Assembly: GCF_001447785.1 (NCBI RefSeq)
Contig: NW_015164214.1
Location: forward strand, 1-64,000
From: Gekko japonicus
Taxonomy: Eukaryota
Length of the DNA stretch: 64,000 bases
Direction of reading: 5' to 3'
A program made the translations under genes and the position numbers. The notes below the pieces were generated by a model. The model did no database searches, was not told the origin of the DNA, and was given only the letters and a program-made list of their open reading frames with translations. This document shows, in pieces, positions 41,401 to 44,329 of the stretch. Each line of letters opens with the position of its first letter. Position 1 is the stretch's first letter.

Positions 41401-44329
41401 GAATATTATGTAGAACCTTATCAAAAGCCTTACTGATAAGCTCTTTATTGTTTGATAAACAAAACATTTTCTAGTCACATAAACTATTTTGTTAACATGC
41501 ATATGCAGAAATATCAGTTATCTGTACCCTGGAGCATGACGTGTATGTGATCCATTGCTGATGCTACTTTCAGACGGACTAGAATTTACAGCAAGCTTAC
41601 ATCGATTGTATATAGTCTAGAAAATGAAAGAAATGTTGGCAGTTAGAGAAAAGTGCCATTTTGGGGAATGGAAGATGTAAAGGTACCTGTCAATTTAGAT
41701 AAATACTTAAACTCAATGCTCAATTTCACCTCAAACTCAAATCAAAGAACCTTCTTTGTTGTAATTTTGGTACAGACGAAGAAGAGCTGTTTTTTTTAAT
41801 ACCCCGCTTTTCTCTATCCTAAAGCGCCCCAAACCGGTTTATAATCTCCTTTCCCTTCCTCTCCCCAAAACAGGTACCCTGTGAGGGAGGTGGGGCTGAG
41901 AGAGCTCTGTGAGAATTGTGTGGCCCAAAGTCATTCAGCAGGCTTCATGTGGAGGAGTGGTGAGTCAAACCCGGCTCCCCAGGTTAAAGTCCGCCCCTCT
42001 TAACCACTACACCATGCTGGCTCAGCTTTGCCATCTGCTACACAGCTTTGCCATCTGCTACACAGAGATATTTACAGAAGGACAGCAGCAGAGCACGGGT
42101 CTGAATGCTTGGTGCTGGCCTGCATGTTCAGGATCAGCAGCAGGGATCAGTACTATCATACTGATGGTGAGGCAAACCCCTATGTGGCAAAGGAATGTCA
42201 AGCAAGATGGTTTTTCAGATCAGGAAGGGAATTGAAATAGGTGGGCATGAACTTTCACTGTCTATGGGAAGGTCTGTCAAAAAGAGGGAGCCAGGTCCCT
42301 TATACAGATGCAATCAAGAACCACGAAGGTAAGTTAGAAATCAAGGAAGGGGCCAATAGTTAAAACTTAAATACAGAATAAGTAAAATTACATGTATTTA
42401 TATCAGAGACTTTTAAAAACTTACTGGGGCCCAAATCAAGCCTCAAAATCTGATAAAAGTTACATATGCACAAGAGGAAACACTTATGACCTAACACGTT
42501 TCGGCCCAGAAGAGCCTTCCTCAGAGGTCAAACATTGAAAGGTACATAGAGGCTCCTGTTACAATCAAAAGGCAGTTAACAAGTTGATATAGGATGAAAA
42601 AAGGAATTCTGTTCGGGAAGAAAGAAAAAAGAAAAAAATGACAAGAAAAATATTAGTAAGTATGTTTTATTCGGAGCTGTGGTGGCTCAAGTGGTTAAGA
42701 CGCTGAACTGCAGGCTGTGGAAGGTCAGTAGTTCAGCAGTTCGAGACCCGGGTGTCATATGATGGAGTGAGCTCCCATCTCTAGTTCCAGCTCCTGCCAA
42801 CCTAGCAGTTCGAAAGCAAGAAATTGCAAGTAGATAAATAGGTACCACTTCGGTGGGAAGGTAACAGCGTTCCGTGCGCCTCGGTGTTTAGTCATGCCGG
42901 CCACATGACCACAGAAACGTCTTCGGACAGCGCTGGCTCTTTGGCTTTGAAACGGAGATGAGCACCGCAACCCTAGAGTCGGATTTGACTGGCTTTCGAG
43001 CAAGGGAACCTTTACCTTTTACTATGTTTTATTCAAAGTCATTGACGGGCAAATAGACCAAAGTTTTTTATCGGATAGGCGAGAAGAAGTTACTCATCGG
43101 GTGGCTAGGTTTGGATGGCTTGCCCTAAGAATTAGAAAAACGATAGTAGCTCAAAAAGAGGAGAATTAAAGAAAAATATTATTTGTGAGGCCTCCTTGAA
43201 ACCTCCTTTGTGGTTCTTGATTCCATCTGGTTGGGTTGAGTCCAGTGTTCCCTCTAAGCTGGGTCAGTGTGAGCTAGCTCACGGTTTTTTAGCCTTCGGC
43301 TCAGACATTTTTGTCTCAGCTCAAGGAGGATGGCTCCAAAGCAAACTAATTGATGCAGCAGCCAAATTGCTCACTCACAACTTTAATGCCAGTAGCTCGC
43401 AAAGTAGGATTTTTGCTCACAAGACTCCACAGCTTAGAGGGAGCATTGGTTGAGTCCCCCCACCCCTTTTTCTTTCCTTTATACAGATGCTACAGCAAGA
43501 CACCTTAAAAGGTGCACTGAAAAAGATGGGAATGGGCTGGTGGCTTCTGCTTCACTTCATGTGTACACAATGCCACTGTAGCACAACGGAAGTGGATATA
43601 AGGCTGACATCTAAATATGGAACATAACCAAAATGGAGCTGGACAACATTCACTCTGCTTTCCTCTTAATTTAAGGTAAGGCAACAACACACACAAGCAT
43701 ACAACAACAAACAACATCATCCTGATTTTTAATAGCCTGAAATTCTGAAATAAGTTTGTTCAGCTTTTTAACAAAGGGATCGACACCGCACAGTTACCTA
43801 ACAGGTGCAGGTATGAAATCAGCGATTACCTCCAAAGGTTTCAAGCCTGGGAGGCTTTATGGATTCCCTGACCCACAAAAGGGAAAGACTGAAACGGAAT
43901 TCCTTACCGTAGTGACATCCAAAGGCAATATAAATACTATGAGGAAGCAAAGATACCAAGCTAGTAGTGTTGCGATGATCACAAGCCTGTGTTGTTTTTT
44001 GAAGTCTCCATACCGATGTAATATGATTAAAGCCAAAAAGAATTATCATATCAATTTCATCAGGAGTCTTGATTACCTCCAAAGGTTTCAAGCCTGGGAC
44101 GCTTTATGGATTCCCTGACCCACAAAAAGGGAAAGACTGAAACGGAATTCCTTACCGTAGTGACATCCAAAGGCAATATAAATACTATGAGGAAGCAAAG
44201 ATACCAAGCTAGTAGTGTTGCGATGATCACAAGCCTGTGTTGTTTTTTGAAGTCTCCATACCGATGTAATATGATTAAAGCCAGAAAGAAGACAAATACT
44301 ATCTCAATGCCCAAAGCTGCACCACTCAT
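14359..44329 (-). CDS. LMBRD2: LMBRD2 (G-protein coupled receptor-associated LMBR1-domain protein 2), complete spliced CDS, 17 coding exons, 693 aa
   Basis: join(complement): 44156-44329, 41528-41616, 37839-37934, 36904-37071, 35337-35547, 33471-33545, 31684-31797, 30220-30403, 29257-29438, 28333-28466, 25932-26037, 24140-24237, 22451-22554, 21040-21086, 20193-20298, 17033-17165, 14359-14419. Total is 2082 nt with all phases compatible. The translation runs [18 protein letters not shown]...[19 protein letters not shown] and matches recalled vertebrate LMBRD2. Confidence 0.97.
15954..16298 (-). mobile_element. Sauria SINE, full length
   Basis: tRNA head with A/B boxes, (ACCTTT) tail; near-identical to the other copies in the window. 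Confidence 0.92.
17033..17165 (-). CDS. LMBRD2: LMBRD2 exon 17 (NAGNAG acceptor; alternative start 17162)
   Basis: (S)[43 protein letters not shown](R); acceptor TTACAGCAG. Confidence 0.93.
18090..18460. mobile_element. Non-autonomous hAT element, 8-bp TSD GTAAAAAA
   Basis: TAGGGATGGAC.../...TGCCCATTCATA degenerate TIRs; exact TSD at 18082-18089 and 18461-18468. Confidence 0.8.
18773..19144 (-). mobile_element. CR1 LINE 3' fragment
   Basis: ATAAGAACATAAGA tail, CR1 3' UTR and decayed ORF2 end. Confidence 0.85.
19414..19602. mobile_element. Palindromic hAT-like MITE
   Basis: TAGGTTGCCAG / CTGGCAACCCTA termini with extended complementary arms. Confidence 0.7.
20193..20298 (-). CDS. LMBRD2: LMBRD2 exon 16
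   Basis: [35 protein letters not shown]; 106 nt. Confidence 0.95.
21040..21086 (-). CDS. LMBRD2: LMBRD2 exon 15
   Basis: (E)[15 protein letters not shown]; 47 nt. Confidence 0.95.
21371..21850 (-). mobile_element. RTE/BovB-type LINE 3' fragment
   Basis: MWCWR..LR..WT.KRTN.WVL / [21 protein letters not shown]; (CA)n tail. Confidence 0.88.
22001..22226 (-). mobile_element. Sauria SINE, 5'-truncated
   Basis: 3' two-thirds of the family sequence. Confidence 0.9.
22451..22554 (-). CDS. LMBRD2: LMBRD2 exon 14
   Basis: [34 protein letters not shown]; 104 nt. Confidence 0.96.
22590..22609 (+). repeat. Poly-G run (G20)
   Basis: 20 consecutive G, 35 nt from the exon 14 acceptor. Confidence 0.9.
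22661..22821. mobile_element. Palindromic MITE
   Basis: Arms CAGGAACTCATTTGCATATT...GCCAATCCTCCAAGAGCTTACAG / CTGTAAGCTCTTGGAGGATTGGC...AATATGCAAATGAGTACCTG. Confidence 0.85.
24140..24237 (-). CDS. LMBRD2: LMBRD2 exon 13
   Basis: [32 protein letters not shown](S); 98 nt. Confidence 0.96.
24958..25582. mobile_element. Non-autonomous hAT (Charlie-like) element with a nested MITE
   Basis: CAGGGGTGTCAAAC / GTTCGACACCCCTG TIRs; TSD GCATAATA / GCATAATG. Confidence 0.85.
25275..25480. mobile_element. 206-bp MITE (TIR CARTGYTCCCTCTAAGCTG), 5-bp TSD TCCGC
   Basis: TIRs plus an identical 5-mer on both flanks. Confidence 0.88.
25932..26037 (-). CDS. LMBRD2: LMBRD2 exon 12
   Basis: [35 protein letters not shown]; 106 nt. 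Confidence 0.96.
26374..27154. mobile_element. Non-autonomous hAT element nested in a SINE
   Basis: TAGGGGTGCAC / TGCACACCTCTA termini; TSD TCGGGTAG / TCGGTTAG; SINE halves on either side. Confidence 0.8.
27875..28004. repeat. 29-bp minisatellite, 4 copies
   Basis: Unit TAGCTATAGTATTATAGCTCTCTCTAAAG. Confidence 0.95.
28020..28205 (+). mobile_element. 5S rRNA-derived SINE with RTE-type tail (other copies ~38430-38616 - and ~58275-58462 -)
   Basis: GATCTTGGAAGCTAAGCAG...CCTGG...AGTATTTGGATGGGAGACC matches the 5S internal control region; followed by GGCAATGG.AAACCACCTCTG. Confidence 0.85.
28333..28466 (-). CDS. LMBRD2: LMBRD2 exon 11
   Basis: [44 protein letters not shown](M); 134 nt. Confidence 0.96.
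29257..29438 (-). CDS. LMBRD2: LMBRD2 exon 10
   Basis: (E)[19 protein letters not shown]...[11 protein letters not shown]; 182 nt. Confidence 0.96.
29788..30205. mobile_element. GC-rich non-autonomous hAT element
   Basis: CAGTGACGGCC / GCCCGGCTCTG termini; TSD ATTAAAGT / ATTATAGT; ends within ~15 nt of the exon 9 donor. Confidence 0.75.
30220..30403 (-). CDS. LMBRD2: LMBRD2 exon 9
   Basis: [61 protein letters not shown]; 184 nt. Confidence 0.96.
30970..31083 (+). mobile_element. Sauria SINE 3' fragment
   Basis: Last ~110 nt with ACCTTT tail. Confidence 0.88.
31684..31797 (-). CDS. LMBRD2: LMBRD2 exon 8
   Basis: [38 protein letters not shown]; 114 nt. Confidence 0.96.
33471..33545 (-). CDS. 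LMBRD2: LMBRD2 exon 7
   Basis: [25 protein letters not shown]; 75 nt. Confidence 0.96.
35337..35547 (-). CDS. LMBRD2: LMBRD2 exon 6 (followed by GC-AG intron)
   Basis: [19 protein letters not shown]...[13 protein letters not shown]; 211 nt; donor GAG|GCAAGT. Confidence 0.94.
36904..37071 (-). CDS. LMBRD2: LMBRD2 exon 5
   Basis: [55 protein letters not shown](W); 168 nt. Confidence 0.96.
37839..37934 (-). CDS. LMBRD2: LMBRD2 exon 4
   Basis: [31 protein letters not shown](W); 96 nt; AG/GTGAG boundaries. Confidence 0.96.
38080..38290 (-). mobile_element. Older MIR/CORE-like SINE (similar copies ~47690-47880 and 53770-53985)
   Basis: CCATTTTATCCTCACAACAACCCTGTGAGGTAGG...GGCCCAA.GTCACCCAG...GGGATTCAAAC. 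Confidence 0.7.
39370..39495. mobile_element. Penelope-type short palindromic remnant (similar at ~5150-5280, 16370-16490, 22985-23120, 27660-27875, 34265-34400, 46275-46370, 46525-46683, 46880-46960, 49720-49910, 57410-57592)
   Basis: GTAGCCGTGTTAGTCTG...GAGYCCAGTRGCACCTT(T)AAGAC arms, often inverted, with decayed CTGAAGA...GAAAGCT hammerhead cores. Confidence 0.7.
40107..41437 (-). mobile_element. CR1 LINE, 5'-truncated, with RT remnant
   Basis: [16 protein letters not shown]...[10 protein letters not shown]...; (CTATGAT)n-type tail; frameshifted. Confidence 0.95.
41528..41616 (-). CDS. LMBRD2: LMBRD2 exon 3
   Basis: [37 protein letters not shown](G)|GTACAG; 89 nt, phase 0 to 2. Confidence 0.92.
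42487..42530 (-). ncRNA. Minimal type I hammerhead ribozyme motif (Penelope-like-element type)
   Basis: UGACCU-CUGAGGA-A-GGCUC-UUCU-GGGCC-GAAA-C-GU-G-UU-AGGUCA: 6-bp stem I, intact core, 5-bp stem II, minimal stem III, GUU cleavage triplet. Confidence 0.8.
42673..43022 (+). mobile_element. Sauria SINE, full length, 12-bp TSD TATGTTTTATTC
   Basis: GGTGGCTCAAGTGG A box, GTTCGAGACC B box, ACCTTTACCTTT tail; TSD at 42661-42672 and 43023-43034. Confidence 0.94.
43040..43170 (+). mobile_element. Short RTE-X-like ORF2 C-terminal remnant
   Basis: [25 protein letters not shown] resembles LLEDKSTAISRNVAKFLFIAIIKRK of the 44.5 kb copy. Confidence 0.45.
43243..43448. mobile_element. 206-bp MITE, same family, 8-bp TSD GTTGAGTC
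   Basis: TIRs plus an identical 8-mer on both flanks. Confidence 0.9.
43824..44290. repeat. Tandem duplication (~219 bp x2, 28-bp spacer) of the 3' part of LMBRD2 exon 2 plus intron start
   Basis: 43824-44042 vs 44071-44290 differ by two substitutions and a 1-bp indel. Confidence 0.95.
44156..44329 (-). CDS. LMBRD2: LMBRD2 first coding exon (exon 2; acceptor-defined exon 44156-44386)
   Basis: [58 protein letters not shown]; donor ACG|GTAAG; upstream acceptor TTACAG at 44387. Confidence 0.96.

Follow-up and report, generated by a model that had tools for sequence, protein, structure and literature searches.

Minimal type I hammerhead ribozymes (min-HHR) occur in the pseudo-LTRs of metazoan Penelope-like retroelements (PLEs) and have been reported for turtle and snakes (Cervera and De la Pena 2014, PMC4209133). 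One tested min-HHR monomer was not cleaved; its dimers and trimers cleave at a low level (PMC4209133). The hammerhead of PAc Poseidon, a PLE of the lizard Anolis carolinensis, cleaves only in the presence of the element's protein, and no RNA ends are found at its cut site in public RNA-seq (PMC11167929). PLE insertions are described with an adjacent inverted 5′-truncated copy, often with a 30–40 bp tail at one end (PMC8557442). Type I hammerheads are also known from introns of the amniote genes RECK, CTCL, and DTNB, where each is conserved across species at a single locus and canonical-like with tertiary contacts (PMC6155905). Non-LTR retrozymes are short non-coding type I hammerhead repeats related to PLE ends. 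Their monomers occur in introns among other places, with solo monomers in reptiles and amphibians (10.64898/2026.07.22.740005).

A 44-nt minimal type I hammerhead motif was read at 42487–42530 on the minus strand (running from 42530 to 42487) of a 64,000-nucleotide stretch of DNA, here called the window. Stem I is 6 bp, all Watson-Crick, and stem II is 5 bp, including one U·G pair. The core C3-U4-G5-A6-G7-G8-A9 is complete, a single unpaired A stands between positions 9 and 10.1, and the G10.1-C11.1 pair is present. The 3′ core G12-A13-A14-A15.1 is followed by the 6-nt helix III segment ACGUGU, by U16.1 at 42494, and by U17 at 42493, which places the predicted cut between 42493 and 42492. ACGUGU is palindromic but imperfect, with two G·U pairs. 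An earlier note on this DNA had described the same 44 letters, stems, core, and cleavage position, and direct reading reproduced all of them exactly. It had also called the ribozyme intact, which holds for the core; beyond the core, helix III and stem II pair more weakly than in other copies.

The motif is sense-oriented to a minus-strand LMBR1-family gene detected by Pfam PF04791 matches. The intron that holds it is flanked by the first coding exon (44329–44156) and the next exon (41527–41616, 3′ boundary approximate), whose acceptor is at 41617. The Pfam matches and exon positions bear out the sense-strand placement given in the earlier note. We take the gene to be LMBRD2, the name used there; its numbering of the intron as the second assumes a non-coding first exon at a CpG island near 50000–52000. 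A PDB search with one host exon gave no match. Literature searches returned no paper on LMBRD2 with a ribozyme and, by title or abstract start, nothing on this locus.

A hammerhead descriptor applied to both strands of the whole window matched 42487–42530 only. Dinucleotide shuffles of the window gave 0/300 matches with stem I of at least 6 bp and stem II of at least 5 bp and 4/300 with looser 4/4 stems; the figure is rough, as the descriptor was picked with the motif already known. Of the model and descriptor searches proposed in the earlier note, the descriptor thus finds the motif, and Rfam hammerhead models match neither the window nor 42300–42700. A degenerate motif pattern had 0 matches in metagenome contigs. 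Stems I and II form in the predicted fold of the isolated 44-mer, with a z-score of only -1.8. This score and the silence of every Rfam model would suit a chance resemblance in intronic DNA, an explanation that is almost certainly wrong given the stricter shuffles and the agreement of min-HHR traits outside the descriptor (PMC4209133).

The motif resembles the min-HHR of PLE pseudo-LTRs in its core and type I topology. Both have one extra nucleotide after position 9, a G10.1-C11.1 pair, a palindromic segment for helix III, a 5′ flank rich in U, and solo copies dispersed as a sequence family, and all four emergent min-HHR traits are present here (PMC4209133). Stem I is 6 bp here versus 4–5 bp for Schistosoma. 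Helix III corresponds to the 2-nt palindromic insertion of Drosophila and mosquito variants rather than to the 4-nt core that vertebrate sequences have in Fig. S3 of PMC4209133; by eye, the motif is absent among the rows of that figure that were shown.

The motif lies in a dispersed repeat family. Genomic contigs from two organisms pile up from 42305 to ~42625, fading by 42660, with 184 contigs aligned in X1 and 167 in X18 (organism B), most of them <90% alike (97/184 in X1). Summed contig depth in X1, which is not equal to copy number, rises abruptly at 42305, from 86 to 1793, and reaches its maximum, 6380, on the motif; the X18 profile has the same shape. A single-copy intronic element is ruled out by this pile-up. 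The family segment at 42312–42660 (minus strand), probably the 3′ part of a pseudo-LTR, ends at ~42312, short of a tail. Loose contig ends gather at the outer edges of stem I (42487–42489 and 42529–42534), so diverged relatives have only the ribozyme in common. Maximal depth on the motif and divergence that begins at the stem I edges contradict chance resemblance. One X18 contig crosses flank and element (42178–42381, with 23 other letters and 10 gaps) and ends short of the motif; its alignment suggests that the insertion predates the split of organisms A and B. Contig 1 of X1 stops at 42491, adjoining the cut site; it is a DNA contig, and its end was read as an assembly break at the repeat. 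Decayed motifs at 39449–39498 and 46545–46594 belong to another family, as the earlier note had remarked.

The whole insertion spans 42312–43474 and has a 16-bp direct repeat on either side (43475–43490 upstream and 42296–42311 downstream, 15/16 match), presumably a target-site duplication. Such a match has a chance of ~7e-6 for ±10 nt placement, and the rise in contig depth at 42305 falls within the downstream copy. At 43205–43474, the plus strand carries the element's 3′ end again in inverted form, as a 25-bp arm plus a 31-nt tail interrupted by a MITE. The arm (43205–43229) is 92% identical to 42305–42329, and 0/2000 shuffles were as good. The tail is present at one end only and measures 31 nt, or 38 nt from the junction at 42312. 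Inverted end and tail agree with the loose contig ends of the family before 42308–42315. The 25-bp inverted repeat was considered as DNA-transposon ends and rejected, as the family runs on past the repeat into the tail. The T-rich middle segment at 43035–43187 (minus strand) has no Pfam or Atlas match; a 30-bp low-complexity T-rich match to 42626–42655 (1/2000 shuffles) indicates that it may be of partial-tandem origin. Two later insertions are nested in the element. A young SINE at 42673–43022 (minus strand), presumably Sauria-SINE-like, is ~96% identical to other window copies and has a 12-bp target-site duplication (43023–43034 and 42661–42672). The 206-bp MITE at 43243–43448, inserted into the inverted tail, has terminal inverted repeats and an 8-bp target-site duplication and is assumed to be hAT-like.

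This anatomy, in which the 5′ end carries a truncated, inverted copy and only one side has a tail, fits the published layout of truncated PLE insertions (PMC8557442) and supports the link to Penelope-like minimal hammerheads drawn in the earlier note. Integration by the PLE route would have left both features. Pfam was run on 243 open frames, 112 of at least 45 aa in 36–49 kb and 131 of at least 75 aa elsewhere. No PLE frame was found among them; the sole reverse transcriptase (RT) match is an RVT_1 fragment at 40707–41342, and GIY-YIG is absent, in keeping with the earlier note, which had seen no Penelope ORF around the motif. Frames in and around the element, including some with stops read through, had no PLE domain in Pfam, and a 48-aa open frame at 43023–43166 (plus strand) had no usable Atlas match. 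Because no RT or GIY-YIG is linked to the family in the window, a PLE origin rests on the RNA motif and boundary anatomy, which make the family a likely pseudo-LTR, the truncated end of a PLE. The lizard PLE PAc is similar in that its hammerhead precedes a tail marking where the insertion ends, and its targets are AT-rich (PMC11167929). The PAc ORF begins at stem II, with RT 111–118 bp into the ORF, whereas here stem II has no ATG and the tail end is >200 nt downstream of the motif. The family is therefore likely to be of another family or clade than PAc.

Instead of being the end of an autonomous PLE, the family could be a non-autonomous PLE derivative, either a short parasite or a retrozyme monomer, with the copy at this locus still a relic. 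Multi-copy depth extends only ~320 bp within the stretch compared, no coding sequence is linked to the family in the window, and there is precedent in the solo retrozyme monomers of reptiles and amphibians (10.64898/2026.07.22.740005). Even so, this origin is unlikely. Active retrozymes have at least two tandem units, each with a hammerhead, and the window has neither tandem units nor a second hammerhead; an inverted end, a tail, and a flanking repeat are present instead, the layout of 5′-truncated PLE insertions (PMC8557442). Truncated PLE ends by themselves also yield short high-copy segments.

Variation within the motif, in the variant rows listed, falls at N7 (42520), loop II and its edge (42507–42509), 42513, and 42496. 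At 42513, other copies carry a pairing-improving base in 69% of X1 depth; at 42496, they do so in 33% of X1 and 54% of X18 depth, and the perfect helix III palindrome is retained in 33–54% of family depth. Drift after insertion would account for both weakened stems: in helix III, the C of a CpG would have changed to U, and in stem II, C-G would have become U·G. The two G·U pairs in helix III would then be what is left of a perfect palindrome. Differences from the family majority number 1/44 inside the motif versus 18/259 outside (p = 0.33, from 40 of the 156 variant rows), so there is no detectable extra conservation, in a test with little power. The point estimates of divergence are 2% inside and 7% outside, and every core base survives although the insertion looks old.

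Stem I was predicted to form with a probability of 0.91–0.97 with 0–10 nt of flank, ≤0.04 in 6/8 native contexts with at least 20 nt of flank, and 0.17 with 50 nt upstream only. With such short flanks, the motif may fold briefly during transcription. The predicted helix III self-duplex is -0.8 kcal/mol for this copy versus -7.5 for perfect-palindrome copies, and mixed helix III between this copy and a family transcript is -5.6 kcal/mol. The descriptor found no second intact hammerhead on either strand of the window as a cis partner. Cis dimers with the two decayed motifs were rejected, as both lack G12 and have non-complementary helix III (duplex ~0 kcal/mol). The earlier note had proposed that the motif could cut the intron, possibly only when two transcripts or a trans partner pair; the weak self-duplex, the predicted loss of stem I in most contexts, and the lack of a second intact motif in the window give cutting as a homodimer no support. 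RNA reads had no pile-up of ends anywhere, at a coverage too low to bear on cleavage at this locus (only 3/89 reads at least 99% alike in X21 and 1 read in X22). Family-like RNA reads occur in X21 (89 reads).

An intronic ribozyme kept by the host could cut the pre-mRNA conditionally, through a family transcript in trans or a PLE protein, and so tune splicing or expression. Such a switch would be silent alone and would cut at 42493/42492 as a mixed dimer or with the element's protein, a scheme in which the mixed dimer would form through helix III (predicted at -5.6 kcal/mol) and the protein dependence of the Anolis PAc hammerhead (PMC11167929) offers a parallel; we regard its operation here as very improbable. 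The complete core, perfect stem I, sense orientation, and an insertion probably common to organism B would all suit retention by the host, and amniotes provide known cases of hammerheads conserved in introns (PMC6155905). The RECK, CTCL, and DTNB ribozymes likewise lie in introns and are type I, but each is conserved at a single locus, whereas the motif here is minimal, in a multi-copy repeat, and weakened in its stems. Where the stems are listed as differing from other copies, pairing is lower at both sites, misfolding is predicted in native context, the motif has no significant excess conservation, and PAc itself has no RNA ends at its cut site in public RNA-seq (PMC11167929). Retention by the host is thus highly doubtful. 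Introns cut by a slow hammerhead were still spliced, according to a second-hand account in PMC2995048.

With high probability, the minimal hammerhead at this locus belongs to one copy of a dispersed repeat family, likely a truncated PLE end, and the copy is predicted to ride passively in the intron, most likely without effect on the host gene. In RNA of the parent element, the ribozyme would have worked as a dimer or with the element's protein. In the pre-mRNA, the motif would be transcribed in sense, would rarely fold, would find no intact partner in cis within the window, and would be removed with the intron. Solo minimal hammerheads from truncated PLEs number thousands in some vertebrate genomes (PMC4209133), so the locus as it stands is an ordinary example of little consequence. 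It is also a worked example of PLE insertion anatomy, in which the target repeat, the inverted end with its tail, and both nested insertions are legible. The locus would matter more only if this copy cuts the host pre-mRNA. If true, the conditional switch would couple transposon activity to host gene output.

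The hammerhead motif lies at 42530–42487 on the minus strand, where its sequence is present letter for letter as the earlier note gave it. It sits inside an LMBR1-family gene of that strand (Pfam PF04791 matches), between the first coding exon (44329–44156) and the next exon, which begins after 41617. A literature search on LMBRD2, the earlier note's name for the gene, together with ribozyme found nothing. Direct reading of the sequence bears out the claimed 6-bp stem I and complete core. An extra A directly follows A9, stem II has 5 bp with a G10.1–C11.1 closing pair, and the six-base segment of helix III is ACGUGU. 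U16.1–U17 are present, and the predicted cut site falls at 42493/42492, as had been proposed. A descriptor search of both strands returned the motif as its sole match, with no second intact hammerhead in the window. Dinucleotide shuffles of the window (n = 300) gave 0 matches with stems of 6/5, 4 with 4/4, and 37 with 3/3. The suggested covariance-model check was negative: no Rfam hammerhead model matched the window or the motif region. A 248-bp tandem duplicate, 99% alike (43877–44042 versus 44125–44290, and 43824–43886 versus 44071–44133), takes in most of the host first coding exon and the splice donor without the start codon; it may have arisen by recent duplication or through misassembly.

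Public runs were searched with 41400–42660; 24 runs were among the matches listed, and four were aligned to 42065–42660 at 80% likeness. In genomic DNA contigs of organism A (X1), possibly a relative of the window's source, 184 contigs align, with 9, 24, 54, and 97 at 99% or more, 95–99%, 90–95%, and under 90%. Their summed depth, which does not equal copy number, stands at 86 across most flank bins, jumps to 1793 at 42305, reaches its maximum of 6380 on the motif, and declines beyond 42605. Genomic contigs of organism B (X18; 167 contigs) have a depth profile of the same shape. We conclude that the motif-bearing segment is multi-copy and old, and draw nothing further from depth.

The family comparison covers 40 variant rows out of 156, along with 18 loose-end rows out of 177 and 16 pieces out of 364. 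Among the 18 loose-end rows, contig ends bunch at 42487–42489 and 42529–42534, the outer limits of stem I. The ribozyme is thus all that the more distant relatives have in common. Among the 40 variant rows, the motif varies at N7 (42520) and at loop II and its edge (42507–42509). At 42513 in stem II the window copy has U.G where 69% of X1 depth has C–G, and a perfect palindrome at 42496 accounts for 33% of depth in X1 and 54% in X18. These 40 rows hold no variant at the invariant core bases; other rows may have some.

The insertion spans 42312–43474, and family loose ends before 42308–42315 match opposite-strand window sequence at 43474–43230. Read along the minus strand, a 16-bp repeat (43490–43475) is followed by an inverted copy of the element 3′ end, interrupted by a 206-bp MITE, presumably hAT-like, with an 8-bp duplication. 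Next come a T-rich segment (43187–43035) and a young, presumably Sauria-SINE-like SINE (43022–42673) with its own 12-bp duplication. The order ends with the repeat's upstream part, then the hammerhead, then the repeat's 3′ part as far as 42312, and finally the second 16-bp copy (42311–42296). The 25-bp inverted arm match was equalled by 0 of 2,000 shuffles. The flanking repeats are 15/16 identical, with a chance of ~7e-6 for placement ≤10 nt from both ends. A tail is found at the inverted end only, 31 nt past the arm or 38 nt counted from the junction.

Typical Penelope-like elements (PLEs), in the available text of PMC8557442, have an inverted 5′-truncated copy at the 5′ end, along with a tail of 30–40 bp, often at one end; the window insertion shares the inverted end copy and one-sided tail. 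All four traits of PLE minimal hammerheads given in the available text of PMC4209133 (occurrence in families that vary, a nucleotide inserted between 9 and 10.1, a G10.1–C11.1 pair, and a palindromic helix III) are present in the motif. The earlier note saw no Penelope ORF, and likewise no RT/GIY-YIG frame linked to the family was found in scans of 243 frames, 15 frames, and 12 read-through frames; the putative PLE membership therefore rests on the anatomy of the RNA and the insertion boundaries. The motif differs from Rfam-type canonical hammerheads in giving no model match. It fails the test for an active tandem retrozyme, as far as the available text of 10.64898/2026.07.22.740005 sets it out, and is not single-locus, as are the conserved intronic hammerheads in the available parts of PMC6155905 and PMC6765202. 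In the features tested, the motif agrees with a PLE minimal hammerhead, and it is predicted to work like one.

The window holds other elements. An RVT_1 fragment (Pfam, E 1.8e-11) at 40433–41342 (minus strand), presumably a CR1 LINE, lies in the next host intron and has no link to the hammerhead element. The putative CR1, Sauria-SINE-like, and hAT-like assignments would suggest a squamate-like genome. A 190-aa open frame at 44448–45020 (plus strand), which has a Cys/His motif and no Pfam match, looks to us like a LINE C-terminus. Decayed hammerhead remnants at 39449–39498 and 46545–46594 (minus strand, sense to the host gene) belong to another family, as previously noted; neither has G12, and neither pairs with the motif helix III. 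A third, partial copy is found near 46640. Long palindromes at 34279–34367, 46298–46375, 27746–27823, and 22704–22791 have below-threshold miRNA precursor scores in Rfam; the first two have sequence in common with the decayed family's 3′ flank and are likely inverted element ends. 5S rRNA-like and tRNA-like matches at 38522–38638 (minus), 28001–28127 (plus), 48020–48091 (plus), and 56226–56298 (minus) are probably SINE heads.

In the parent element, cleavage would occur as a dimer via the palindrome or with help from protein. One monomer in the available text of PMC4209133 was inactive, and its dimer and trimer had low activity. The Anolis carolinensis Poseidon PLE (PAc) hammerhead is active only with the element's own protein, and no RNA-seq ends were seen at its cut site, in the available text of PMC11167929. 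In equilibrium predictions without proteins, the helix III self-duplex is −0.8 kcal/mol for the window copy versus −7.5 for the family variant, and −5.6 for the mixed pair. Predicted stem I probability, on the same basis, is 0.91–0.97 when the flank is 0–10 nt, 0.17 when only 50 nt upstream is present, and ≤0.04 in 6 of 10 contexts. A brief interval of co-transcriptional folding is conceivable, as is a mixed dimer between the motif and transcribed copies of its family; either would speak against a passive relic. PMC2995048 reports second-hand that splicing still took place in introns cut by a slow hammerhead, whereas a fast HDV ribozyme blocked it.

RNA reads were aligned from two runs. About 3% of X21 yielded 89 reads, of which only 3 are at least 99% alike, and about 12% of X22 yielded 1 read. 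No read-end pile-up was found among the rows listed for both, with too few locus-matched reads to decide cleavage. Most X21 reads on 42065–42660 derive from family copies other than this one. Over-represented among them is a loop II variant (11–12 of 18 reads in one direction, strand not assignable); 14 reads continue beyond stem I, crossing the predicted cut site into a different flank, and in 6 helix III appears two bases shorter.

The insertion seems older than the divergence of organisms A and B: one X18 contig (42178–42381) crosses its junction but ends short of the motif. The motif core is complete despite this apparent age, which counts against a relic. Majority differences from the family number 1/44 inside the motif versus 18/259 outside (p = 0.33, among 40 of 156 variant rows), and the lower rate inside leans weakly toward conservation. 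That the motif has been kept as a conditional cutter of host pre-mRNA seems very improbable to us. Our main reading is that it is most likely a passive relic of a truncated PLE end.
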